A stretch of 64,000 nucleotides of DNA from a virus (lineage: Duplodnaviria > Heunggongvirae > Uroviricota > Caudoviricetes), in IMG/VR virus record IMGVR_UViG_3300014205_000001, positions 253,413 through 317,412 of that record; one strand, written 5' to 3'. Position 1 is the stretch's first letter, and every line of letters begins with the position of its first letter. Below are positions 18,514-64,000 of the stretch, piece after piece. The translations under genes were made by a program, and so were the position numbers. The notes below the pieces were generated by a model that was given only the letters and a program-made list of their open reading frames with translations, ran no database searches and was not told where the DNA came from.

Positions 18514-18588
18514 TATCCGGCAATTTTTAATTTGTTATGTTGTTGAAAATGATTTGATTTACTTTTCTATCCGGCAATATCCGGCAAT
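18505..18588. repeat. two copies of ATCCGGCAATATCCGGCAAT (decamer x2 each) 64 bp apart in the nrdA-nrdB intergenic region
   Basis: Exact 20-mer at 18505-18524 and 18569-18588. GC-rich relative to the surrounding AT-rich sequence. Confidence 0.6.
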
Positions 18589-20870
18589 TAAATTGAACAC
18601 GCACCTGATTCACAATCAGCACCTTGAGTTTCTTTTGTTGCTTCGTTATCACGATTATCATTTGTATTTGCATAATACAGAGTTTTAACTCCCATTGTGT
18701 ATGCATATAAAATGTCTTTAATTACACCAGCAATCGAAATTCCATCTTCAGTTGCATTGTAGTAATGATTAGCTGAGATAGATTGGTCCATCCATTTTTG
18801 CATGATCGCAACAATGTTAGTATCACCTGTATTATTGGGCATATCGAATGCCATTTCGTATTTATTTTTCAGTTTCGTAATTTCAGGAGCAACTTGTTTT
18901 ACAATACCTGATTTCGATTTTTTACTAATAATTAATGCACGTAAAATTTCTTTACCATTCGTTGCATTTTGAACTACTGCTGATGATTCGGCTGGCATTC
19001 CTGCAGATAAACAGCTGTTACGTAATCCCCACTGTTTAATATTAGGACGTAAACCTTCCCAATCACAACTGTATTTACGTTTTACAATTTTATCGACATT
19101 TTTATTGTAACGATCAATCGGTAAAATTCCTTGACTATATGTTGTTTGATCAAAATATCCACAAGGTCCTTTTTCTTTAGCTAATTTATTACTTGCTTTT
19201 AGTAAAGAGAATTGCATGTGTTCGAACCATTCATCAATGGCTTCTAAACCTGAATTGTCGCTGTACTTGAAATTATTTTTTGCCATCCAATAAGCCATAT
19301 TGGTTACACCAACTCCAATGGAACGACGTTGTAACATTTTCTTAGCTGCATTGATAGGATAATCCTGATGATCAATTACAAAGTCTTCTAAACGTACAAT
19401 ATATTCAGCTGCTTCATATAATTCTTCCCACGATTTAATTTGACCCATATTAAAAGCTGCTAATACACACAGTGCAATTTCACCTTCACTTAAGTGTTCA
19501 GTTTCTTTTTTATTATCAATGTCGTAAATAGATTTAATAGGTTTTGTAGGTAAACAAATTTCGACACATAAATTTGACATTCTAATTCTTTCAATGAAAG
19601 CTGAATTTTCATTTACATTGTCGATATTCATTACGTACATACGACCTGTACCAATACGTTCTTGTGCAAAGGTGTTCATTAAATCACGAGCCTTTACTAC
19701 TTTTTTACGAATCTTTTTATCTGCTTCGTATTTAAGATATAGTTCATCGAATTTTTTGTTATCACCAAACGCATCGTATAAACCTGGAACATCATTCGGA
19801 CTGAAGAGACAAATATCACCATTTGCAATGAAACGTTGATAGAACAATTTAGAGAATTGAATACCGTAATCAATATGACGAACACGATTATCATCAGTAC
19901 CTTTATTATTTTTAAGTACTAATACATCTTCAATTTCAAGATGCCACCAAGGGAAATATACTGTTGCAGAACCTTTTCTGATACCACCTTGACTACAACT
20001 GTGTAGTGTGGATTGAAACATTTTTAAGAAAGGAATTACTCCAGTATGTACAACTTCACCATTACGTATTTTAGAACCTAATGCACGAAGACTACCTGCG
20101 TTAATACCAATACCTGCACGTTTTGCAACGTACTGACCAATTGCAGTATTTGCATTGAAGATCGAATCTAAAGAATCTTCCACTTCAATTAATACACATG
20201 AACTATATTGGCGGTTTGGAGTTCTGATACCTGCAACGATTGGTGTAGGTAAACTTATTTTTTGTAAGGAAATTAAATCATATAATTTTTTTACGTGAAT
20301 TAAACGTTCATCTTTATCAACATGGTCCATAAACGTTGTCATTGCAATAAGCATATAAGCAAATTGAGGTGTTTCATACGTTTTACCAGTTGAACGATCT
20401 TTTACTAAATATTTATCGATCAATTGTTGTAGACCTGCATGAGTTAAATCGTAATCACGTTTGTGTTTAATGTAGAGATTAATTACAGAAATTTCTTCAG
20501 CTGTATATTTATCTAAAATTATCGGATCATAAAAACTTAATTGAACGTTACGAACAATTACTTCCCACAGATGTGGCATTTCAGTTTTAATTTCGAAAAC
20601 TTCTTTTCGAAGTAAATAATTTAAAAGGTTAGAAGCAACGTATTGATAGTTGGGATTTTTTTCACTAATTAAATTAACTGAGGATTCAATTAATACTTGA
20701 TGAATTTGTTTTGTTGTAATTCCAGGAAAGAATTGCAAATGAGCATTCATTGCAATATCGGATGCGGATACGTTGTTATATTCTTTGGTAGCCCATAAAA
20801 GGACTTTGTTGATTTTTTCTGCGTCAAAAATTGTTTTTTGACCGTCACGTTTGGTAACGTTTAATTCCAT
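18588..20870 (-). CDS. nrdA: ribonucleotide reductase class Ia large subunit
   Basis: N-terminal ATP-cone (VTKRDGQKTIFDAEKI). Catalytic-core size. C-terminal redox tail CESGACSI. Confidence 0.9.
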   Translation of the reverse strand: MELNVTKRDGQKTIFDAEKINKVLLWATKEYNNVSASDIAMNAHLQFFPGITTKQIHQVLIESSVNLISEKNPNYQYVASNLLNYLLRKEVFEIKTEMPHLWEVIVRNVQLSFYDPIILDKYTAEEISVINLYIKHKRDYDLTHAGLQQLIDKYLVKDRSTGKTYETPQFAYMLIAMTTFMDHVDKDERLIHVKKLYDLISLQKISLPTPIVAGIRTPNRQYSSCVLIEVEDSLDSIFNANTAIGQYVAKRAGIGINAGSLRALGSKIRNGEVVHTGVIPFLKMFQSTLHSCSQGGIRKGSATVYFPWWHLEIEDVLVLKNNKGTDDNRVRHIDYGIQFSKLFYQRFIANGDICLFSPNDVPGLYDAFGDNKKFDELYLKYEADKKIRKKVVKARDLMNTFAQERIGTGRMYVMNIDNVNENSAFIERIRMSNLCVEICLPTKPIKSIYDIDNKKETEHLSEGEIALCVLAAFNMGQIKSWEELYEAAEYIVRLEDFVIDHQDYPINAAKKMLQRRSIGVGVTNMAYWMAKNNFKYSDNSGLEAIDEWFEHMQFSLLKASNKLAKEKGPCGYFDQTTYSQGILPIDRYNKNVDKIVKRKYSCDWEGLRPNIKQWGLRNSCLSAGMPAESSAVVQNATNGKEILRALIISKKSKSGIVKQVAPEITKLKNKYEMAFDMPNNTGDTNIVAIMQKWMDQSISANHYYNATEDGISIAGVIKDILYAYTMGVKTLYYANTNDNRDNEATKETQGADCESGACSI

Positions 20871-20945: not shown

Positions 20946-21137
20946 TTACAGTGTATTATGTGTCCCATTTTCTACGTTTTTGTTTTTGTCTGTATTTTGC
21001 GGAAGGGGTTTTAAGGTCCCGTTTGCTAACGCATCTTCGTAAACTTTCACTTGTCGATGCACTTCGGGCATTACTTCTTCTTCCCATCGTCTTTTAATTT
21101 CATCCCAATTGGGCCAAATGTCTTTAATTGTTTTCAT
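20946..21137 (-). CDS. hypothetical small protein
   Basis: 63-aa charged ORF continuing the minus block. The overlapping + ORF 20851-21042 looks spurious. Confidence 0.4.
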   Translation of the reverse strand: MKTIKDIWPNWDEIKRRWEEEVMPEVHRQVKVYEDALANGTLKPLPQNTDKNKNVENGTHNTL

Positions 21138-21307
21138 ACACTATATATTTATATACTGAAACTATCACTTTGTTTAATATTAAGTTGCAAGTTTTTGGGA
21201 CAGATATGATATAATTAAAAATAAATATAAAATTTATAAATTACGAACAGAAAACTTATAAATTAAGGGTCAGTAAAACTTTTAAAAAATATGTCTATAT
21301 AAGTAGT

Positions 21308-22663
21308 ATGAATAAAGAAGAAATATTTAGTCAGTTCGTATTAGACAGAGATAAAGAACAACTGTCACCAGCTGAAATAAAAATGTTAGACGCCTTATCT
21401 CTCGAAGAAGTTAAGGAATGTTTAGATCAATCCAGTAAACAGAAATATTACAATCAATCCTTAGACTTAGGTCGTAAATTAGCCCTCGTTTGCGTATATG
21501 GTGCGTTTGGTAATAATCACTTTGTAATTTCAACAAAAGAAATTGCGGGTGCAATTACAGCGATGGGTCGTGATACTATTAAATATATGGACACGATCAA
21601 TGAAACATATTGGTACGAATACTGGCATGAAGATACTGAGTTACACGAACACTTAGGTATTAAAACAGAAGACGTGAAAAAATTAGACGCTGCATGGATT
21701 CATCGTGAAACATTATCAGAATATGATGGTGAACCCACACAAGATGAAATTGATGAAGGTACTTATCAACGTAAATTTCCAGTTTCTATTTATATAGATA
21801 CTGACTCATTATTTGTGAGTTTTGATTATGGAATGAAATCCTGTAATTATCAAGGTAAGAAAGAAGATTTTGTATTGAAATGCGCAAAGTTTCGTTTGGA
21901 ACCTTTATTCAAACGTAAATTAGATACGTACGCTAAAAAATATGGTGTACCAAATATTCAAGATTTTGAATTAGAAAATATTAACGAATCCATTTTATTC
22001 GTATCCAAGAAAAAATATATTAAGCATACAGTATGGGAGGACGGTACAGTATTCCCACGTCTACAACAAGTAGTTTCCAAGGGTGTAAATTTAGTTCAAC
22101 GTGGTACTCCTAAATTTGCTAAACAAAAAATCATGGAGATTATCCATTACTTGTTTGATAACAGCGAAACATATAATATCAAGGACTTATTAAAATTCAT
22201 TCGTGATTTAAAGAAAGAATTTGAAATGCAAAATGTGGATGATATATGTCCAAGTTCAAATTTAAATATGTACTTGAGTCAAGGTAAAGTATTAGTGGAT
22301 GGTGTACTTGTGGACAGCCCAGGTATCTTAAACGATAAAACAGATTTAGTATTTGCGAAGGGTACATATTTTACAGTGAAGGCAGCAGGGTTGTATAATT
22401 TTATGTTACATAATAATCCAGAATGGATGAATGATTACGAAATTGTAAAACCTGGAACGAAAATTAAAGTATATCCCACAACACACGAAAAGAATAATAA
22501 ATTTGCGTATCCGATTGGACAATATCCTAAGGAATTTGCACCACCGATTGATTACGATGAATTGTTTGAAAAAACAATTTTGGATGGTGTGAATTATTAT
22601 ATTGAGGCATTGAATTTGCCTAAATTAAATAAACGTTTAAAAGTAGTAATGTCTTTATTTTAA
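21308..22663 (+). CDS. family-B DNA polymerase, C-terminal portion only (motif B, motif C, thumb)
   Basis: KLALVCVYGAFGN ~ T4/RB69 KxxxNSxYG motif B. YIDTDSLFV ~ YGDTDS motif C. KKKYIKH ~ KKRY. No exonuclease or motif A (DxxSLYPS) in or upstream of the ORF. Confidence 0.7.
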   Translation: MNKEEIFSQFVLDRDKEQLSPAEIKMLDALSLEEVKECLDQSSKQKYYNQSLDLGRKLALVCVYGAFGNNHFVISTKEIAGAITAMGRDTIKYMDTINETYWYEYWHEDTELHEHLGIKTEDVKKLDAAWIHRETLSEYDGEPTQDEIDEGTYQRKFPVSIYIDTDSLFVSFDYGMKSCNYQGKKEDFVLKCAKFRLEPLFKRKLDTYAKKYGVPNIQDFELENINESILFVSKKKYIKHTVWEDGTVFPRLQQVVSKGVNLVQRGTPKFAKQKIMEIIHYLFDNSETYNIKDLLKFIRDLKKEFEMQNVDDICPSSNLNMYLSQGKVLVDGVLVDSPGILNDKTDLVFAKGTYFTVKAAGLYNFMLHNNPEWMNDYEIVKPGTKIKVYPTTHEKNNKFAYPIGQYPKEFAPPIDYDELFEKTILDGVNYYIEALNLPKLNKRLKVVMSLF

Positions 22664-22854: not shown

Positions 22855-23985
22855 ATGAGTTTAAACTTTCAATTTCAAGCAACTCTCGACGAATATCTTT
22901 TAGCTCAAATTTATGAAAATGTACCTAAATTTTCAACAACTTATGTATCAATTGAAGTAAAACATCAACAATTTAATGAATTGTTCGAAAAGTACTTTGG
23001 TGAATTTGAAATTTTTGAAGCAACAAGTAGTTTCCATTCCAAAGTTACAAACAATTTAGAACCTTATATTGACAGATTATTAATTAGTAAATCGACGGCC
23101 GAAAATCCGTCGATTGCAGTTAAGTACAGTGTCACAAATATTAATGACGAATCAGATACTACAAAAGATTTTGATTACGAACAGTATGGTATTTATTCTG
23201 CAACAAATTTTAGTTTTTATTATCCGTATTCGAAACAAAGTTACGTTAATAAATTTATCAACGAACTGAAAACATTAATTCAAGACGAACGTATTACAAA
23301 TCGTTTCTTTACAATTGGTGTAGGTAATGGTGGATTTAAACTAGTAGCAGAAAAAGTTATGTCAATGCAGGATTTAGATATTAAAATGCATTATGGCAAA
23401 AAATTCGTCCCTGTATTAAATGAAATGATTGATAATTTAAAAACTAAATTTCACGGTTTATTTTTATTATATGGCGAACCTGGTACAGGTAAAACAACAT
23501 TGATTCGTTATTTGATTAATATCATGTGTAACGATAAAACTATTTTATACGTTCCGGCGTACATGGTAGAACAATTAGCCAATCCTGAATTTATTTCATT
23601 TTTACAATCACAAAAAGAAAGTATAATTATTTTAGAAGATGCAGAATTTGCACTTCAAGCACGAAGTGATGAATTTGGTCAACAAGCAGTTTCAAATTTA
23701 TTGAATATAACAAACGGTTTATTAAATGATGCAACGAAGATGCAAGTAATTGCGACTTTTAATATGGATAAGAAAAATATTGATAAAGCATTATTACGTC
23801 CAGGTAGATTATTAGGTGATTGTAAATTTGATAAATTGAACGTTGAAGATTCAAAAGCGTTAGCAGATTTTTTGAAAAAAGATATGGAAATTACAGTACC
23901 GATGACCGTTGCTGAAATTTATAATGGTAAAACACTTAACCGTAAAGGTACGAAGAAACGTATAGGAATTAAAGATGATGAATAA
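22855..23985 (+). CDS. classical AAA+ ATPase
   Basis: Walker A GEPGTGKTT, Walker B IIILEDAE, sensor ATFN, SRH-type ALLRPGR arginine finger. Confidence 0.7.
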   Translation: MSLNFQFQATLDEYLLAQIYENVPKFSTTYVSIEVKHQQFNELFEKYFGEFEIFEATSSFHSKVTNNLEPYIDRLLISKSTAENPSIAVKYSVTNINDESDTTKDFDYEQYGIYSATNFSFYYPYSKQSYVNKFINELKTLIQDERITNRFFTIGVGNGGFKLVAEKVMSMQDLDIKMHYGKKFVPVLNEMIDNLKTKFHGLFLLYGEPGTGKTTLIRYLINIMCNDKTILYVPAYMVEQLANPEFISFLQSQKESIIILEDAEFALQARSDEFGQQAVSNLLNITNGLLNDATKMQVIATFNMDKKNIDKALLRPGRLLGDCKFDKLNVEDSKALADFLKKDMEITVPMTVAEIYNGKTLNRKGTKKRIGIKDDE

Positions 23986-24259
23986 AGACCAAGTCTTACA
24001 TATAAATAATTTTAAAGATTATACTCATAATCAAATAACAGAAATGTTGAAAATCTTACAGATGGAAGTCAAAACATTGCGACATAGTCGTGATTATGAA
24101 ATTGAATCATTAAAGGATTTAATTCAAAAATTAGAATCGAAAACAACTCATCAGACAGAAGAAATTGAAAAATTACGCAAAAACAGTTTAACTTATTTAC
24201 AATTGCTGGAAAAACCACTAACTCTTAAAGAACGGGTGTTGGGTAAAAAAATTATCTAA
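23975..24259 (+). CDS. hypothetical coiled-coil protein
   Basis: 94-aa ORF. Confidence 0.4.
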   Translation: MMNKDQVLHINNFKDYTHNQITEMLKILQMEVKTLRHSRDYEIESLKDLIQKLESKTTHQTEEIEKLRKNSLTYLQLLEKPLTLKERVLGKKII

Positions 24260-24883: not shown

Positions 24884-27800
24884 ATGACAAATACCTCAAA
24901 AAAATACAATTCTATTAATGACGTAGCCGCACAATCGATGCGTAATGGTCAAAACGTTCTGGAATTACTAACAAAAATTGATCAAGCTTTAAACAGCAAT
25001 GACAGTTATGTTACTGCCAAGAATGTTGACGGTGCAGGTCAAGAAACTACTGTACAGATACCTACAATGGGATATGTAAAACAAAAATTGGACCAATTAT
25101 TTAAAATGGTTCGAATTTTAAGTGGTGTTGATGGTAACCCAGTTGCTTTACAATTAAGCGACAATGCATTCAAACGAATCGTTGTAGCTGATCTAAATTT
25201 AGAACCTAAAGCTATCCCTGCACTTGCTCCTGTTACAGTTTTTAAAGCTGACCCAAATCACTTTTTTGATTCCCTATTAAATCCTAAAATTAGTATTCAA
25301 TTAGACTTAACAGATAAAATTTCTACTGATACAAGATATATTGAAAGTAAACGTTTCATTGTTGAATTTGATCAAATCTTAACTGTTGATCCGAATACTG
25401 GTTCCGAATCCATTGCATTAACAACTGATGGTGCTTTACGTAAAGCAGAATTTGAAACTAAATATAAAGGTAAAGCAAATATCGACATGGTTGAATTTGC
25501 TACTTGGTTAGATACTCAAGGTTTAGTAAATCGTGTCGATGATACTTTATTAGATCAGGATTATTTTAGAATTGAACCTAATCGTTTACAAAAGAAAGGT
25601 AACTTTACAATTTTAAATACTGACACGGATGTTGAAAATAAAAAACTTTGGTATGTTTTAGATACATTAACTTATTACGATATTAGTGATTTATTAAATC
25701 CACCTAAAGCAGTTCAATTAAAAGTTGGTGATTTTATAAACGTAAATCCTAATGATACAAATGTAAAATCAACTACTGTTTATAAAGTAATTGAAATTTC
25801 GACAATCACTTCAGAGTTCCGTGTAAGATTCGAAGCTGTATATGGTGAAGAACCTATTCCAGTTCGTTTAGCAGCAATATCAATTTATTCAGATACAGTT
25901 AAAAACCGTACTTGTAAAATTAGTGTAGGATTCGATGAATATTGCGTTGTCTTTATTCGCCAAATTGATACTAACAATAATTTAGTTGGTTTAGATTGGA
26001 GTCCCGGTGTTGGTTTTTGGACTAACGAATTACGTTTAGATAATAGTAACGGTGCTGTATTTAGCGATTACTATACAAAAACTGTATATGATTATGGTAT
26101 TGTATTAGATGATTTAGTAGGTAAAAAAGTTCCGAATTATTATGGAGTTAAACCTAATGCTCCAGTATTAGATGCTAACAATTTTAAAGTAGTACAAATT
26201 AACGGTCACTTAACACAAACAGTAGAAGCTGAAAAAATTCGTGACTTACATAATCAAAAAAATACATTAGCAGCTGAAATTAGTCAAATTCAAACTGCAT
26301 TAGATAAACAAAATAAAATTATTCAAACAACAAGTTTTGCATCGACTGCTGATCGTAAACGTGCCGAAGATGAATTGACTTTATTAAATACAAAATTAAG
26401 TGGTAAATCTCAAAATAAATTTTCAGTAGTACAAGATATTTTATCAAGTAAAAAGAATTTAAATAAAATCGCAGCTGAATATCACGCACGTGGTTTTTTC
26501 CCGATGCCTGTTGCTGCTGAATCTACAAAAACTGTTCCACAGGAAGTAGTTCAATTTGAAATTTGGTATCGTAAACTTTCGAAATCAGGAACTGAAAATG
26601 AAATCTTAACAATTTCCGATATTGATAATAATTCAGCACGGTTAGCAAGTTCTGTTAATACAACTTCTCAAGATAATGTATCACGTCCTAAAACTGTGAA
26701 TGGTGCATTTAGTAATTGGACTAAATTTAAATCAGATGCGCGTAAACGTATTCAAGACCCAATATCAGGCGACTGGAGATGGGAAATTGAAGATGTAAGT
26801 GATGCAAATACACCTAATATTAATCAAATTGATATTGCAATTGAACCCGGTGAAGTTATTGAATTAAAAGTAAAATCATTATCTGAAGCAGGATGGCCTG
26901 AAACACCAACTGAATCGGATTTTTCTAATTCCATTCAAATTATATTTCCCGATGATTTAAATAGTGTATTAAATGAAGACGATTTCATCTTAAAAGAAGC
27001 GCAAGCTGATGATATGACAATTAAATTCGAACGTTCATTAGACGATCGTAATTTATCTTTACATTTAAATACTGGTTATCGTGTAGGCGACGTATATTAT
27101 GCTCATCGTACTCCACATATTGATTCAGGTTTTAAAGACGCTCAAGGTAACGTAATTAATTTATATGATCAGTTACTTGCAATGGTTGTAAAAATTACTT
27201 CTATTGAAGAATTAGTGAATCGTGCAAAAGGTGTATTGGAAGTATATTTAGATGAAAATGGAAATCGTATTCGTCTATTTAATGGTAGTAACTTAAATTT
27301 CAATTTAAATTTAGAAGATTATATGTCACCTACACAAATTGGTGTATCAGGTGCAGCTGTAGATTCTACATCTCGTACTTATAAAAATGATTTAATTGTT
27401 ATTCAACGTTATACATTAATTTTAAAGAACTCTGCAGAATCTGCACAATTAGGTTTATTATCTTATCGTGGTTATGGTGATGCTGCAGGTATGACTCCAT
27501 TCACAATGGCTTATGATGGTAAATATCGTTCAGCAACCAATCGTGGTATTCAAGCAATTTGGACAACTTCAGATTCTTCATTATTAACAACATCAGCAAC
27601 TGTTGACGAAAATAACGCTGGTGCATTAACAGTATTACAATCTCCTAAATATCGTGCAACACAAAAGAACAATCAATGGATTTGGTTAGTTACAAAAGAT
27701 TTAAATGGTAATTATATTTACGATTCTGATCAGGCACAAAACTCAGCAGCCAATACAGCCAATCAATCAACAAATAATGACTTATGGCAATTCACTACAG

Positions 27801-28822
27801 CAGCATTATTAAATAATGGTTCTAAAGTTCATAATACAATTACAAAACGTGATTATAATTTAGGATTTTTAACAGGAACAACTCAAGGAGCTCCTGTATT
27901 AGCAGATGGTATTGATAGCATTAGTGATTCATTAAATTGGAATGTAAGTGAAGCATATAATGCTGCATTAAATTTAGGAAGTAATGGTTACATGGCTTCA
28001 ACAATTCATCCAGTAGTTTCTGGATTTAGTTCAATTGTTGATACATCAACACAATTAGTAAAATTCTTAAAAGCAGGTGAAACAAATTTAATTTCAATTC
28101 CTATTTATATTTATGTAAAACCTTATACAGGTGCATTAGTAACTTCACAAGTTACAGGTGGTGCAGTATTTGATGATAGTAATTATCGTGGTATAAGTAC
28201 AGGTGATATGCCAGTTGTCGCAACAGCAAGTAATATTAAAAGAGTAGGTACTGTTTTACAAGTATTAATGGTTGACTCTTCTTCAAAAAATATATTTGTT
28301 GCAGGTGACCGTGTAGTATTTGATGGATTCACAGATAGTAATTTAACATCATCAACAAATAATATTAATGGTAAAGTTCTTACTGTTACATTAGTTACAG
28401 GTAACTTTATTCAAGTTAATTTTAATCCTGGTTCTTTATCAACAACAGCAGTAACAGACGCTGCAGGTGTTGTTGTTCAAGTTCATAAAAAATATAAACG
28501 TACTGCAGTACCTTCAGGTATTGGTTTACCTGTGTCTTTATCTAGTGAATATACTGGAATTGGTGCAGAATTAGAAGCATATAATGTTTTAGGTCGTGTT
28601 GGTTCCGATAATCGTGTAGTACCAAGTTATGTTGAAATTAAAACAACAACGTCAACTCCTTCACCTGCAAAACATAATAAGAAAATACGTTTCTATTTTG
28701 AAGAAGAAAATTCTGCACGACCTTTTGAAATGCAGTTACAATTTAATATAACACAGTACAAACCCGTTCAGATTCAATCTGGAGGAGGTGGTGGTGGATT
28801 TGGTGGTTTCAGTGGTTCATAA
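24884..28822 (+). CDS. large (1312 aa) putative virion structural protein
   Basis: Long ORF, Ser/Thr/Asn/Val-rich beta-type composition with one central coiled coil, Gly-rich tail QSGGGGGGFGGFSGS. Function unknown. Confidence 0.5.
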   Translation: MTNTSKKYNSINDVAAQSMRNGQNVLELLTKIDQALNSNDSYVTAKNVDGAGQETTVQIPTMGYVKQKLDQLFKMVRILSGVDGNPVALQLSDNAFKRIVVADLNLEPKAIPALAPVTVFKADPNHFFDSLLNPKISIQLDLTDKISTDTRYIESKRFIVEFDQILTVDPNTGSESIALTTDGALRKAEFETKYKGKANIDMVEFATWLDTQGLVNRVDDTLLDQDYFRIEPNRLQKKGNFTILNTDTDVENKKLWYVLDTLTYYDISDLLNPPKAVQLKVGDFINVNPNDTNVKSTTVYKVIEISTITSEFRVRFEAVYGEEPIPVRLAAISIYSDTVKNRTCKISVGFDEYCVVFIRQIDTNNNLVGLDWSPGVGFWTNELRLDNSNGAVFSDYYTKTVYDYGIVLDDLVGKKVPNYYGVKPNAPVLDANNFKVVQINGHLTQTVEAEKIRDLHNQKNTLAAEISQIQTALDKQNKIIQTTSFASTADRKRAEDELTLLNTKLSGKSQNKFSVVQDILSSKKNLNKIAAEYHARGFFPMPVAAESTKTVPQEVVQFEIWYRKLSKSGTENEILTISDIDNNSARLASSVNTTSQDNVSRPKTVNGAFSNWTKFKSDARKRIQDPISGDWRWEIEDVSDANTPNINQIDIAIEPGEVIELKVKSLSEAGWPETPTESDFSNSIQIIFPDDLNSVLNEDDFILKEAQADDMTIKFERSLDDRNLSLHLNTGYRVGDVYYAHRTPHIDSGFKDAQGNVINLYDQLLAMVVKITSIEELVNRAKGVLEVYLDENGNRIRLFNGSNLNFNLNLEDYMSPTQIGVSGAAVDSTSRTYKNDLIVIQRYTLILKNSAESAQLGLLSYRGYGDAAGMTPFTMAYDGKYRSATNRGIQAIWTTSDSSLLTTSATVDENNAGALTVLQSPKYRATQKNNQWIWLVTKDLNGNYIYDSDQAQNSAANTANQSTNNDLWQFTTAALLNNGSKVHNTITKRDYNLGFLTGTTQGAPVLADGIDSISDSLNWNVSEAYNAALNLGSNGYMASTIHPVVSGFSSIVDTSTQLVKFLKAGETNLISIPIYIYVKPYTGALVTSQVTGGAVFDDSNYRGISTGDMPVVATASNIKRVGTVLQVLMVDSSSKNIFVAGDRVVFDGFTDSNLTSSTNNINGKVLTVTLVTGNFIQVNFNPGSLSTTAVTDAAGVVVQVHKKYKRTAVPSGIGLPVSLSSEYTGIGAELEAYNVLGRVGSDNRVVPSYVEIKTTTSTPSPAKHNKKIRFYFEEENSARPFEMQLQFNITQYKPVQIQSGGGGGGFGGFSGS

Positions 28823-28951: not shown

Positions 28952-29911
28952 ATGAAAAAATCAATCTATCTTATACTCTTCGTACTTATAAGTACTATGA
29001 GTTTTTCACAAACGTTTGTTTCAGTTGAAGGAAGTAAATATCAACTGTTAACAGCAACTAATCCAAGTGCACACGATACAATTATCACTGAAACATCCAA
29101 TTCCTATATTACATTCAGTGTAACTTTACCGGCAAATACTCAATATTCAATAAGTATTGGTGCTAATCTTATCCGAACAAAAACTTCAACAGGTGCTTCA
29201 AATGATACTATTAAAATCAAAGCCAAACCTGAATTAAGTTATTCATGGAATGTTAGTAACAATTTCCATTATCGAATTTACACAAGTAACGTGACAATCG
29301 GTCATTTTAGGGTGAAAAATAAAATAAATTTTTTAAATGTAAATTCCGGAATTTCTGGCAATACTATAAATTTCACACTTGATACTTTAAAAGGTTTGAA
29401 TTATCATATTAACAATTCAATATCGAAAAGTATTTATGAATATTCTTTTTCACAAACATCAACTCCGCCATTAAATGCTACGAATTTATCTACTCTTGTT
29501 GTTGGTCCTTTATCCATGCCAATTACTTCAAGCGGTACATATTATTTACATATTCGTGGTTACAGTTATTATCTTGATCCGAATGAAACTAATTTTGGTT
29601 TAACATTTACAGGTTGGATAACATATTCAGTAGCTGCAACCTATACACAAAGCACAGTTGGAATTTCTGAAAACACATTAAGTAATTTTAAGGTATATCC
29701 AAATCCAGCTAAGGACTTTATTACAGTGCAATACACATCAGCCAATAACATTGAAAATGTGTCACTATATAATATTGCCGGTCAGGAAATGACAACTCAG
29801 GCAGTCGAATCTATGGGTGATAACAAGGTAACCTTTAATTTGGAATCCTATCCACAAGGTATCTACTTTGCAAGGATTGGTTCAAGTACTTATAAATTCA
29901 TCAAACAATAA
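28952..29911 (+). CDS. secreted protein with type IX secretion system C-terminal sorting domain
   Basis: N-terminal signal peptide MKKSIYLILFVLISTMSFSQ. C-terminal ~80 aa (KVYPNPAKDFITVQ ... NIAGQEMTT ... GIYFARIG) match the Por_Secre_tail CTD pattern of Bacteroidetes. Confidence 0.75.
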   Translation: MKKSIYLILFVLISTMSFSQTFVSVEGSKYQLLTATNPSAHDTIITETSNSYITFSVTLPANTQYSISIGANLIRTKTSTGASNDTIKIKAKPELSYSWNVSNNFHYRIYTSNVTIGHFRVKNKINFLNVNSGISGNTINFTLDTLKGLNYHINNSISKSIYEYSFSQTSTPPLNATNLSTLVVGPLSMPITSSGTYYLHIRGYSYYLDPNETNFGLTFTGWITYSVAATYTQSTVGISENTLSNFKVYPNPAKDFITVQYTSANNIENVSLYNIAGQEMTTQAVESMGDNKVTFNLESYPQGIYFARIGSSTYKFIKQ

Positions 29912-39003: not shown

Positions 39004-40584
39004 ATGCAATTAAAATATTTAAAGGACCAAGAACGTGTTAAAATAATTCCTGAAACAAAAACAGAACTTCGAGGTATTAAACAATACCTCAATCGTCATG
39101 TCGATGGGTACATGCACACACCACGTTTTAAAATGAAATTGTGGGACGGACGTGAAACTGAATATCGTAGTGAAGATGACACGATACCTCTAGGTTTATG
39201 GAAAGAAGTTTTTAAATGTTGTGAAGATTTTGGGTACCCATTTAATTTTTTAAATAAAGATGAATTTCCTATTAACAGAGATGTTAAAAAGAAAGAATTT
39301 ACAGAATTTATTGAAAATTTCTTTAAAGGTTTTACATTAAAAGGTAAGAACTTTGAAACTCGTGAATACCAATTGCGTTGTGCAATTAATATTCTTAAAA
39401 ATCGTTATTGTAATATGCGAGTTGCAACATCAGGTGGTAAAACACTGATCTATGCAATGTACATGTTTTATTTATTATCCAAATATCCCAAATTTAAATT
39501 TCTTTTAATTGTACCTTCAACTACTTTAGTTACACAATTTTATGACGATATAATGTTATTCAATTGGGATAAAAAATTACATATCAATGCTCAGGAAGTA
39601 TTTGCTGAAGGTAATAAACCTCGTACTACATTTCCTGATGAAGAACCTAATTTTGTAGTAGGAACGTATCAGTCATTGGTCATGCAAAAGAAAGAATACT
39701 TTAAAAAGTTTCATTCAGTTACAGTTGACGAAGGGCATAAAGCAAAAGCTAATTCCTATAGTAAAATATTAAAACATACAGTTAATAACGCAAAATATCG
39801 TTGGGGGATGTCAGGTACCTTTCCTGAAGATATTAGTTACGAAATGATGAAGATTATGTCAGTAACTGGACCTGTAGTTGATCGTGTTACTGCACGGGAA
39901 TTAATTGATGCAGGTTATATTACAGATGTTCACATCAAAGGAGTATTAATGTATCATAATGATTACGAATTTGCAGATCGATTAGAAATTGTTGCAAGTA
40001 GAGATCGTAAAACATGTTATGACTTAGAATGTGAAAAATTACAACAATCAGAAGAACGATTGAATGTAATTAATAAAATTGTGAGTCAATGTAAATCAAA
40101 TACATTAGTATTGTTTCATAACGAAGATTATGGAAATAAGATTTTTGAATATTTGCAAGAACGTAATCCTGATAAAGTATTTCACTTTATTAATGGAGGT
40201 GTAAGTAACAGAAAACGTACACCTATTAAAGCTGATATGGAAAATACAGATAAAGTTCGTGTATTAGTAGCCAGTTTTGGTACCTTATCCACAGGTGTTA
40301 GTATTGATGCGATCACGAATGTGGTATTTTGTCAGAGTTTCAAAAAAGAACAAGTCGTAATACAATCAATAGGACGTGCTTTAAGACTCTTAGAAGGTAA
40401 GACTAAGGCGTATATCTTTGATTTAGTGGATATATTCAATCAAGATAATTATAATAAACAAAAATACCGTCCTTTTCAAAATGTTTTATTTAATCATTGG
40501 AACAAGAGAATGAAAATATATACAGAAGAGGACTATAAGTTCGACTATTTAGAAGTACAATTAAAAGAAAGTCATCAAATATAA
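39004..40584 (+). CDS. SF2 DEAD/DEAH-box DNA/RNA helicase (UvsW-like role possible)
   Basis: Motif I ATSGGKTLI, motif II VTVDEGHKA, motif V FGTLSTGVSIDA, motif VI QSIGRALR. Confidence 0.8.
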   Translation: MQLKYLKDQERVKIIPETKTELRGIKQYLNRHVDGYMHTPRFKMKLWDGRETEYRSEDDTIPLGLWKEVFKCCEDFGYPFNFLNKDEFPINRDVKKKEFTEFIENFFKGFTLKGKNFETREYQLRCAINILKNRYCNMRVATSGGKTLIYAMYMFYLLSKYPKFKFLLIVPSTTLVTQFYDDIMLFNWDKKLHINAQEVFAEGNKPRTTFPDEEPNFVVGTYQSLVMQKKEYFKKFHSVTVDEGHKAKANSYSKILKHTVNNAKYRWGMSGTFPEDISYEMMKIMSVTGPVVDRVTARELIDAGYITDVHIKGVLMYHNDYEFADRLEIVASRDRKTCYDLECEKLQQSEERLNVINKIVSQCKSNTLVLFHNEDYGNKIFEYLQERNPDKVFHFINGGVSNRKRTPIKADMENTDKVRVLVASFGTLSTGVSIDAITNVVFCQSFKKEQVVIQSIGRALRLLEGKTKAYIFDLVDIFNQDNYNKQKYRPFQNVLFNHWNKRMKIYTEEDYKFDYLEVQLKESHQI

Positions 40585-43669: not shown

Positions 43670-44413
43670 ATGGACACAACAGTAAAAAGTATCGACCTTC
43701 GCAAGGGTGTTATTCAGCAAATCGCTGCAAATAAAAATATTGCTGGATTACGTGCACAAGTAGTACTTGTATTGGACCGTAGTGGTTCAATGGAGTCATT
43801 GTATAATTCAGGATTCGTTCAACGTTTATTAGAACGTTTAGTTCCTGTAGCAATGCAATTCGACGACAATGGTGAAATGGAAATGTACCTATTTCAAAAC
43901 AATTGTGTAAAACACGATAAAAACATTAACGAAAAAAATGTTGACGGATTAATTAATCGTGAGATCACTGAACGTAAATACAGTTACGGTGGAACTGCAT
44001 ACGCACCACCAATTCAACAAATCGTAAAAGATTATGTTCGTCATGAAACAATCGAAAAGAAAGGTGGATTTTTTGGATTCGGTAAAACAACAACCAACAC
44101 CAACATTACAAGTACTGACCCTGTGTATGTGATTTTTATCACTGACGGAGAAAACAGTGATCGTACAGCTGCAGAAAACGCAATTAAAGAAGCATCTAAA
44201 TTTGGTATCTTCTTCCAATTCGTGGGAATTGGAAATGCAAAATTTGCATTCCTTGACCAATTAGATACAATGGAAGGACGTACTGTGGATAACGCAAATT
44301 TCTTTCAAGCAAATGATCTTGACAAATTAAGTGACGAAGATTTGTACGGACGTTTACTTGCTGAATTTCCTGAATGGGTGCAAAAAGCACGTCAACTTTC
44401 AATCATTAAATAA
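43670..44413 (+). CDS. von Willebrand factor A (vWA) domain protein
   Basis: MIDAS DxSxS in VLVLDRSGSM. Downstream T (GGTAY) and D (FITDGENSD) motifs in canonical order. Confidence 0.7.
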   Translation: MDTTVKSIDLRKGVIQQIAANKNIAGLRAQVVLVLDRSGSMESLYNSGFVQRLLERLVPVAMQFDDNGEMEMYLFQNNCVKHDKNINEKNVDGLINREITERKYSYGGTAYAPPIQQIVKDYVRHETIEKKGGFFGFGKTTTNTNITSTDPVYVIFITDGENSDRTAAENAIKEASKFGIFFQFVGIGNAKFAFLDQLDTMEGRTVDNANFFQANDLDKLSDEDLYGRLLAEFPEWVQKARQLSIIK

Positions 44414-46159: not shown

Positions 46160-46500
46160 AAGAACCTGTTTCTTTCGAAAAAGAATATAAGAGAATCGGT
46201 AAAATCAATCTTAAAAAAGGTGTTACACCTGCTTTAGGTTTGTGTAAATTATTTGAAGAAGCTGGTGAACTTGCACAAGCCGTGAATGTACAGATTGGCA
46301 TTAAAAATGGCGATCCGAAACTCATTGTTGCAAATGTGAAAGAAGAATGTGCTGACGCGATGCAAAACATTATGTCAATTGCGAATTTATTTAAGATTAA
46401 ACCACAAGAACTTTTAGGTGAACTATTCCTTAAAAACGAAACGTGGGATAAAATAAAAAGAAAAGCTGACCCAAAAAAGGCGAAAGTGAAACATGATTAA
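46135..46500 (+). CDS. mazG: MazG-like nucleoside triphosphate pyrophosphohydrolase
   Basis: ALGLCKLFEEAGELAQA ... EECADAMQNI matches the MazG/HisE ExxE...ExxD four-helix metal-binding pattern. Confidence 0.65.
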   Translation: MAVRKTKLKEPVSFEKEYKRIGKINLKKGVTPALGLCKLFEEAGELAQAVNVQIGIKNGDPKLIVANVKEECADAMQNIMSIANLFKIKPQELLGELFLKNETWDKIKRKADPKKAKVKHD

Positions 46501-47020
46501 TATGAAACTGAAACTAATAATTGCTGTAGATAAAAACGGAGTAATGGGTGACAAAAATAAGTTGCCTTGGAAACTAAGTGACGATTTAAAGCAATTCAAA
46601 CAAGAAACATCAAATTCACCTCTTATTATGGGGTCTAATACATTTAATTCACTTCCTGGTATATTACCTAATCGTGAACATATTGTATTGAGTCGTAACA
46701 TGGAAGGTAATAAACACATGAGTGTTTTTACATCGATTAAAAATGCAATGGATTATTTAGCTGAAACTGAATATCAACATGCATTTGTAATTGGGGGCGC
46801 TAATGTTGTAAAGCAATTTGCGCATTTTAATATGTTTGATGAACTTATCATTACACATGTTAACTGTAAAATTAAGGGTGACACAATTTTAGATTTAGAC
46901 GATGATTTAAAATTAGAAAATTGGGACATTTATCGTTCCACTGAATACAAAAAATCTGACAAGAATCAGTATGATTTTGTAGTTAATCGTTATGTTAAAA
47001 AGAAAAAACGTTTTTATTAA
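46493..47020 (+). CDS. folA: dihydrofolate reductase
   Basis: LKLIIAVDKNGVMG..KLPWKLSDDLKQFK..PLIMGSNTF. Canonical DHFR N-terminal motifs and size. Confidence 0.85.
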   Translation: MINMKLKLIIAVDKNGVMGDKNKLPWKLSDDLKQFKQETSNSPLIMGSNTFNSLPGILPNREHIVLSRNMEGNKHMSVFTSIKNAMDYLAETEYQHAFVIGGANVVKQFAHFNMFDELIITHVNCKIKGDTILDLDDDLKLENWDIYRSTEYKKSDKNQYDFVVNRYVKKKKRFY

Positions 47021-49335: not shown

Positions 49336-49410
49336 GGTCCTTTAGTTTAATGGACAGAGCATGGGGATTCTACCCCCAGAGTGAGGGTTCGATTCCTTCA
49401 AGGACTACCA
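49336..49410 (+). tRNA. tRNA-Arg (anticodon TCT), CCA encoded
   Basis: Acceptor GGTCCTT/AAGGACT, anticodon arm TGGGG-ATTCTAC-CCCCA, T-arm GAGGG-TTCGATT-CCTTC, ends ACCA. Confidence 0.85.
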
Positions 49411-49507
49411 AATAAATAAGGAAGATCGACTCATCAGGCGATGGGAGTAGTTTGCTAAACTATCTGTGCATGAATTTGCACACGGGTCGGGACCGTGGTT
49501 TTCCTCT

Positions 49508-49582
49508 GCCTCTGTAGCTCAATTGGATTAGAGCACTCGCCTACGAAGCGAGAGGTTGCGCGTTCGAATCGCGTCAGAGGTA
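49508..49582 (+). tRNA. tRNA-Arg (anticodon ACG)
   Basis: Acceptor GCCTCTG/CAGAGGT, D-arm GCTC..GAGC, anticodon arm CTCGC-CTACGAA-GCGAG (identical loop to E. coli Arg-ACG), T-arm GCGCG-TTCGAAT-CGCGT. Confidence 0.85.
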
Positions 49583-49662
49583 CAGGAATATAATATGAGT
49601 TCGAGTCTCAGCAACGGAGATAGCTACCGTTAGAAGCATTTATGGTGATGCAGTTCCACTAT

Positions 49663-49735
49663 GCCTTCATAGTTCAATGGATTAGAATGTCGCGCTTCGG
49701 ACGCGATGATGTGGGTTCGAATCCTACTGAGGGTA
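49663..49735 (+). tRNA. tRNA-Arg (anticodon TCG)
   Basis: Acceptor GCCTTCA/TGAGGGT, anticodon arm TCGCG-CTTCGGA-CGCGA, T-arm GTGGG-TTCGAAT-CCTAC. Confidence 0.8.
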
Positions 49736-63459: not shown

Positions 63460-64000
63460 TTATACTAGTGCTATTCTTATCCATTCATCATTTTCGACAC
63501 AGATAAATAAATAATCAGCATCATAATGTTTTTGTGATTGAAAAGTATTTGTAATTGCAGGTCCTGTGTACACTTTACTTGTCCAATTACCTGTGTCTTC
63601 TAAATTTGCACGAGTTGTAGTATCACTAATCCAATCATTGATTAATAATTTTGATGCACTTTGTACACCGCTACTGTTTGATTCTACAATTCTATTACCT
63701 GTACCTGATTGATCAGTAACTTGTAAGTCACCTACTACTTCTAATGTATGACCTGTATTAAAGTTAGAATCACCAATACGGCTTTTACCATTTGCTACAA
63801 TACCTGATTGTTCAATAAATACTCCATATTTATTTGTTCCTGCTAATGCTCCACGAATATATAATCCTGCAGATACACCATACATAAAATAATCTGTAGT
63901 CCCACCACCATAACCAATACCTAATGAAAGTCCACTACCATCATTTACATGTATAGTAGATTGTCCCGCTAAATTATAAGAATTGCTTGTTGCAGCAAAA
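63460..64000 (-). CDS. structural protein, 5' end beyond window
   Basis: Minus-strand frame remains open from 63885 to the window end. Confidence 0.45.
   Translation of the reverse strand, partial: FAATSNSYNLAGQSTIHVNDGSGLSLGIGYGGGTTDYFMYGVSAGLYIRGALAGTNKYGVFIEQSGIVANGKSRIGDSNFNTGHTLEVVGDLQVTDQSGTGNRIVESNSSGVQSASKLLINDWISDTTTRANLEDTGNWTSKVYTGPAITNTFQSQKHYDADYLFICVENDEWIRIALV

Follow-up and report, generated by a model that had tools for sequence, protein, structure and literature searches.

A stand-alone C-terminal half of a gp43-type DNA polymerase and its probable partner from a distant gene in a huge T4-like phage

The stretch of viral DNA analysed here, 64,000 nucleotides of the Caudoviricetes record IMGVR_UViG_3300014205_000001 (the window), contains on its plus strand an open reading frame with an ATG start (21308–22663) whose 451 codons cover only part of a family B DNA polymerase. 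This raises the question of where the remainder of the enzyme is encoded, and of how a polymerase might be built from such a gene. The surroundings are those of a T4-like jumbo phage, with a G+C content of about 30% and genes for both ribonucleotide reductase subunits (nrdA and nrdB), an NAD-dependent ligase, a UvsW-type helicase (39004–40584), a gp13-like neck protein, and a sigma factor. An earlier note on this DNA proposed that the polymerase is made in separately encoded parts, as with the 43A/43B genes of T4-related phages, with the N-terminal part located elsewhere; it offered an intron or intein as the alternative.

The C-terminal half and its surroundings

The 451-aa product is the C-terminal half of a family B DNA polymerase of the gp43/RB69 type, present here as a protein of its own. 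The reading frame, Pfam and PHROG matches, alignment to RB69 gp43, and an AlphaFold2 model show that it comprises the second fingers helix, the remainder of the palm, and the thumb. The Pfam DNA_pol_B profile is matched at positions 138–357 of 453 only (E = 1.4e-14). PHROG 1918 (annotated 'DNA polymerase', 382 positions) is aligned over its full length (E = 1.2e-43), and because this profile is matched end to end, stand-alone C-terminal halves already constitute a recognised protein family. The second fingers helix, equivalent to helix P of RB69, is placed at aa 32–68 (21401–21511) by the model and the RB69 mapping, and motif B (KLALVCVYGAFGN, aa 57–69; 21476–21514) lies at its end. Motif C, YIDTDS (aa 162–167; 21791–21808), provides one catalytic aspartate and corresponds to RB69 D621-T622-D623. 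A motif scan also located KKKY (aa 234–237; 22007–22018), a form of the KKxY primer-terminus-binding motif found at the border of palm and thumb. The earlier description of a lone C-terminal half with motifs B, C, and KKxY is therefore accurate for this window.

Alignment of 69 homologues shows that both the start and the end of the protein are conserved; the N-terminus (MNKEEIFSQFVLDR...) is kept from the first methionine in relatives, and K57, Y64, G65, the four residues D164–S167 (D164, T165, D166, S167), K234, K235, and Y237 are invariant. Comparison with one 85%-identical relative indicates purifying selection (pN 0.112 and pS 0.639; pN/pS 0.18). The extreme C-terminal tail, LNKRLKVVMSLF (22625–22660), is kept at the C-terminus of nearly all aligned C-terminal halves. 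In T4 and RB69, the C-terminal tail of gp43 binds the sliding clamp; given its resemblance to that tail, the conserved peptide is a putative sliding-clamp-binding element.

Upstream of the ATG lies an AT-rich intergenic region of 170 nt (21138–21307), in which the closest in-frame stop is at 21212, leaving no hidden upstream exon; stops break all three frames across 437 nt. The closed upstream frames and the start kept in relatives agree with the proposal that the half begins at its own ATG. The gap had further been described as facing a divergent nrdA, and this needs correction: its length holds, but it borders a 63-aa ORF on the minus strand (20946–21137), and the start of nrdA (20870) is 437 nt from the ATG. 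The source assembly lists this 63-aa ORF as a gene; it matches no family, and no counterpart was detected in the 85%-identical relative (L166). A regulatory scan was uninformative, with 10 sigma-70 promoter-like sites against 13.2 expected and one terminator-like site against 0.9 expected. Two copies of the T4-late-like TATAAATT precede the ATG; with 25 copies in the window against 23.6 expected, this element is not enriched.

The neighbouring genes have features of their own. In the window nrdA (18588–20870) is intact. In an IMG/VR relative with a 60% identical C-terminal half (L007:4502-7386), nrdA is found in two pieces, aa 1–629 and aa 592–760, separated by about 500 nt, which suggests that the gene is interrupted there. 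On the 3' side the polymerase half is followed by an AAA ATPase (22855–23985, plus strand; 376 aa, PHROG 14322, function unknown), a small ORF (23975–24259, plus strand), and a 1,312-aa protein (24884–28822, plus strand). The pairing of C-terminal half and AAA ATPase recurs in four relatives (L007, L173, L009, and L010), two of which (L007 and L173) also have the 1,312-aa protein next. The ATPase was considered as a clamp loader; the matches to such proteins were weak, and it looks like a classical AAA protein of the CDC48/proteasomal type.

The N-terminal partner and the position of the break

The window does not contain the missing half. Searching it by tblastn with the N-terminal half of Chryseobacterium phage MA9V-1 gave noise only (E > 6), and a profile built from three N-terminal halves gave a best E of 0.36 against 1,119 six-frame stop-to-stop segments, which upholds the statement that exonuclease motifs and motif A are absent from the window. 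The 10 kb flanking each side likewise contained no N-terminal half and no polymerase gene. The ORF with Exo I–III and motif A that the earlier note had advised looking for was located through protein cluster look-ups: a 498-aa protein, P0560, on contig ERZ27247358 k141_1155954 (390,959 bp). On this contig P0560 is encoded at record positions 372,635–374,131 (plus strand; also L174:10001-11497) and the C-terminal half at 102,965–104,320 on the same strand. Window positions equal record positions minus 81,657, so that P0560 lies outside the window, at an equivalent coordinate of about 290,978–292,474. On the linear contig the distance from the C-terminal half downstream to P0560 is 268,314 bp; if the genome is circular, the other way round measures about 119,792 bp. 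Both halves are also recorded on a contig of 391,061 bp (JGI, Logan, and ENA sources). P0560 is surrounded by genes for a dUTPase, a NUDIX protein, the gp23 major capsid protein, a prohead protease, and a portal protein, and where the interval between the halves was sampled (window and flanks), genes occur on both strands.

P0560 has the motifs that the 451-aa protein lacks: Exo I (FCDIEVE), Exo II (GWNFVNYDW), Exo III (YNCIDT), and motif A (DFSSLYPT). Its Pfam matches are DNA_pol_B_exo1 (E = 1.6e-11) and DNA_pol_B at profile positions 38–153, abutting the segment 138–357 matched by the C-terminal half. When aligned to RB69 gp43, a check also suggested earlier, the halves are co-linear. Residues 98–490 of P0560 correspond to RB69 114–502, and the protein ends 8 residues further on; in the C-terminal half, aa 26–99 correspond to RB69 529–603 and aa 161–320 to 618–786, and its start projects near residue 504. 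Jointly the two span RB69 gp43 from 114 to at least 786 of 903, all catalytic motifs included, except for residues 503–528. Since the N-terminal half aligns up to 502 and the C-terminal half from 529, the break falls within RB69 503–528, in the fingers. In the RB69 structure this segment forms the tip at which the long antiparallel helix pair of the fingers domain (residues 469–572) is joined. By its place in the alignment, the split position is the fingertip, as in the bicistronic gp43 of T4-like phages, and the proposed likeness to 43A/43B extends to the break itself. A fused homologue of 949 aa (P0130) is aligned by the N-terminal half over residues 1–487 and by the C-terminal half over 521–902.

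Structure models of the single chains point in the same direction. The AlphaFold2 model of the C-terminal half (pLDDT 87.7) has a long motif B helix near its N-terminus (H32–68), and its best structural matches in the PDB are all RB69 gp43 (probability 1.00, TMq 0.50–0.59, TMt about 0.3). That of P0560 (pLDDT 85.6) ends in a 40-residue C-terminal helix (H458–497), and RB69 gp43 chains are again its best PDB matches (probability 1.00); the motif A region (363–399) is poorly determined when this half is modelled alone.

A probable polymerase from two polypeptides and its alternatives

Taken together, these data make it very probable that the family B DNA polymerase of this phage, which is of gp43 type, is built from two polypeptides whose genes are unlinked. 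In this arrangement P0560 would supply the N-terminal domain, the 3'-5' exonuclease with Exo I–III, the palm strand of motif A, which bears one catalytic aspartate, and the first of the long fingers helices, whose Arg/Lys residues bind the dNTP phosphates. The 451-aa subunit would contribute motif B on the second fingers helix, the other catalytic aspartate in motif C, KKxY, the thumb, and the C-terminal tail. Because the motif A and motif C aspartates sit on different chains, neither half can act as a polymerase alone. The subunits are expected to associate non-covalently as a heterodimer, in which the 40-residue C-terminal helix of P0560 and the helix at aa 32–68 of its partner would pair as an intermolecular fingers hairpin, while a palm sheet completed from both chains would rebuild one active site. 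Association and activity of this particular pair are inferred by analogy with several precedents. In phage 25, the gp43A and gp43B proteins purify together and have activity (PMC2988022), a Pfu polymerase cut at the fingertip performs like the wild-type enzyme (PMC3061061), and the PhiKZ proteins gp82 and gp50 assemble into a stable polymerase of 1:1 composition (PMC13648687). The identities to the closest relatives run in parallel for the two halves (96, 83, 83, 83, and 72% for the N-terminal half; 86, 85, 83, 82, and 75% for the C-terminal half), which is consistent with co-inheritance.

Among the other explanations, the one that survives best accepts the split enzyme as real but assigns genome replication to a different polymerase, the pair being used in repair or in some specialised role. 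A minimal, split Pol III alpha has been reported as an additional enzyme in jumbo phages of the broad group (PMC7824862), and the altered motif B described below could suit a specialised enzyme. The inspected portion of the contig (391 kb) amounts to about 105 kb, of which 83 kb include and flank the window and 21.5 kb surround the N-terminal half; no other family B polymerase was seen there. Against an accessory role, both halves are strongly conserved, and every relative examined has this split gp43-type enzyme in a T4-like context, so that this explanation is considered unlikely.

Considerably less probable is a joining of the halves after their synthesis, either by protein trans-splicing through a split intein or by RNA trans-splicing. 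There is precedent for such events, as split inteins and 'fractured genes' are known in replication genes of environmental phages (PMC2677866). Within the present family, three relatives of the C-terminal half (P0302, P0318, and P0323; 609–621 aa) carry an ordinary Pfam Intein_splicing domain, so inteins do enter this gene family, though not the gene in the window. The proteins studied here leave no room for one: beyond the RB69 alignment there are 8 residues at the end of the N-terminal half and 25 at the start of the C-terminal half, where neither an N-intein of about 100 aa nor a C-intein of about 35 aa can fit. Pfam finds no intein or Hint domain in either half, and an HN[CST] junction is absent from the first 80 residues of the C-terminal half. 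An intron on one transcript is likewise difficult to reconcile with the separate, conserved ATG of the C-terminal half and an N-terminal half at least 120 kb away, and Rfam detects no group I or group II intron above threshold in the window. The intron or intein alternative of the earlier note accordingly finds no support in these observations.

The least credible explanation regards the ORF as a remnant in decay, or as the product of a faulty assembly in which one contiguous gene was broken: a half-gene alone in 64 kb could give this impression, and one Logan contig (SRR6484325_10077) stops 113 nt 5' of the ATG, but the same protein is found on the contigs of 390,959 bp (ENA) and 391,061 bp (JGI/Logan/ENA), the 85% relative shows the same divergent nrdA/C-terminal half junction on five separate contigs, the ORF start and end are conserved in the 69 homologues, the catalytic residues are all kept, and pN/pS is well below one.

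Relatives, the motif B variant, and other split polymerases

A polymerase made from two unlinked genes, the reading preferred here, is also indicated by the relatives. The halves are separate ORFs in seven of them, namely six huge phages in which they are 101–618 kb apart in linear coordinates (IMGVR 3300002143_000235, GCA_040959605.1, LR745206, LR756502, LR756504, and LR756501) and Chryseobacterium phage MA9V-1, in which the distance is 2.2 kb. Two of the huge phages belong to the window's own clade: in IMG/VR 3300002143_000235 (313,708 bp) the N-terminal half is at 89,002–90,438 and the C-terminal half at 241,484–242,869, and in GCA_040959605.1 (JBFOML010000026.1; 451,936 bp) the halves are at 179,685–181,175 and 370,178–371,521. 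In MA9V-1, two ORFs lie between the gene of a 495-aa 'DNA polymerase II', which has the Exo motifs and motif A, and that of a 425-aa 'DNA polymerase family B'. The C-terminal half of the window is 27% identical to that of MA9V-1 and 33–45% identical to those of the huge phages LR745206 and LR756501–LR756504. All of the relatives examined have the split gp43-type enzyme and a T4-like context (gp23, portal, UvsW, nrdAB, and ligase). Among the best 150 cluster representatives matched by the N-terminal half (50% clustering), 104 are 440–580 aa long, the size of stand-alone halves, and 23 have at least 800 aa, the size of full-length enzymes, which makes the split form a widespread one. This arrangement is conserved in a large clade of huge phages, whose hosts are probably Bacteroidota.

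The motif B of the window protein is unusual. It reads KLALVCVYG, as against the consensus KxxxNSxYG: the Lys, Tyr, and Gly are present, and the Asn-Ser pair (RB69 N564/S565) is replaced by Val-Cys. Valine is found at this position in 6 of the 69 aligned C-terminal halves (P0274–P0279), namely the window protein and its five closest relatives, and asparagine in the other 63. In RB69, N564 contacts the beta-phosphate (PMC3061061), and with a motif B lacking Asn-Ser the catalytic properties may be atypical. The first fingers helix in the partner N-terminal halves of the Val-Cys sub-lineage reads RK[YF]FK[HF]Q, and that of the rest of the clade RKxNKN. From these alignments, polar residues facing the triphosphate appear to have been lost on both fingers helices, in two unlinked genes, in what look like correlated changes. 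As they are confined to one lineage, they are a lead and not a result. It is possible, though rather doubtful, that the unlinked genes co-evolve and that the sub-lineage has remodelled the triphosphate-binding face on both subunits. If so, nucleotide selectivity might be altered, for example toward a non-canonical or modified dNTP, or fidelity changed, and the split fingertip may ease such retuning; an engineered split Pfu polymerase gained tolerance of gamma-phosphate-modified nucleotides (PMC3061061). The Val-Cys motif B would then represent a naturally altered dNTP-binding face that is open to testing.

The enzyme is of a known kind, since family B polymerases that are split in nature have been described before. 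As a protein it resembles the T4-like 43A/43B, and in genome organisation the polymerases of PhiKZ and Methanothermobacter thermautotrophicus. Bicistronic gp43 genes are described in the T4-related phages 25, 44RR, 31, 65, and 133 (Petrov et al., 2006, 2010, via PMC3061061 and PMC2988022). In these accounts, the T4-related 43A/43B proteins are likewise of gp43/RB69 type and broken in the fingertip between the fingers helices, with a start codon for each part. Unlike the present case, the cistrons they describe are adjacent, 2 bp to 3 kb apart, with an untranslated spacer or a homing-endonuclease gene between them, whereas in the window genome 120–268 kb and many genes lie between the halves.

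The arrangement in the chimallivirus PhiKZ is similar in that its DNAP-N (gp82) and DNAP-C (gp50), of which the first carries motif A and the second motif C, are the products of two unlinked genes; their 1:1 complex resembles RB69 gp43 (PMC13648687). However, the PhiKZ enzyme is split inside a large palm-insertion domain, totals 1,369 aa, has a 'little finger' and extra domains, and works with an Rhc partner (PMC13648687), whereas the enzyme described here totals 949 aa, near the 903 of RB69 gp43, lacks large insertions, and is split at the fingertip. PolB of M. thermautotrophicus is also formed from halves of one family B polymerase encoded by distant genes, 85 kb apart (Kelman et al., 1999, via PMC3061061); it differs in being archaeal and in having a palm split, about 83 residues C-terminal of the fingertip position. 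The engineered split Pfu polymerase has a break near the fingertip, and its reconstituted fragments are wild-type-like, so this position tolerates a break; in contrast to the natural pair, that enzyme is artificial and bicistronic, with coupled translation (PMC3061061). The Chryseobacterium phages MA9V-1 and MA9V-2, together with LR745206 and LR756501–LR756504, have the same protein families for both halves, each as a separate ORF, but are distant relatives in which the canonical motif B asparagine is kept throughout.

A description of an unlinked, fingertip-split gp43 in huge phages was not found in the open-access literature; one survey of large aquatic phages has 'DNA-directed DNA polymerase' as two separate orthologue groups and does not comment on this (PMC12619734). 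The present genomes carry the T4-like 43A/43B phenomenon beyond adjacent cistrons, to loci that are fully unlinked, and show that a replicative-type polymerase can persist as two unlinked genes across a large and diverse clade of huge phages. The family may provide natural pairs for the study of fingertip-split tolerance. There is also a practical consequence for annotation, as pipelines will label the C-terminal half truncated or partial, and knowledge of a partner 120–268 kb away averts a false 'pseudogene' call.

Several minor observations concern the rest of the genome. An ORF at the window edge (63460–63885) is not on record as a called gene. Just upstream of the window, at about 77.5 kb of the record, a 189-aa gene (L122:5298-5867) encodes a phage homologue of translation initiation factor 3, in which Pfam recognises the domains IF3_N and IF3_C. 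Downstream of the UvsW-type helicase are genes for a vWA-TerF-like protein (43670–44413, plus strand; E = 2.7e-63) and a dihydrofolate reductase (46493–47020, plus strand; E = 2.8e-43). Three clustered tRNA genes are located at 49336–49735 (plus strand), with Rfam tRNA scores of 56.7–65.3 bits. A 319-aa protein (28952–29911, plus strand) contains a Por_Secre_tail domain, the C-terminal sorting signal of type IX secretion, and this domain hints at a Bacteroidota host.
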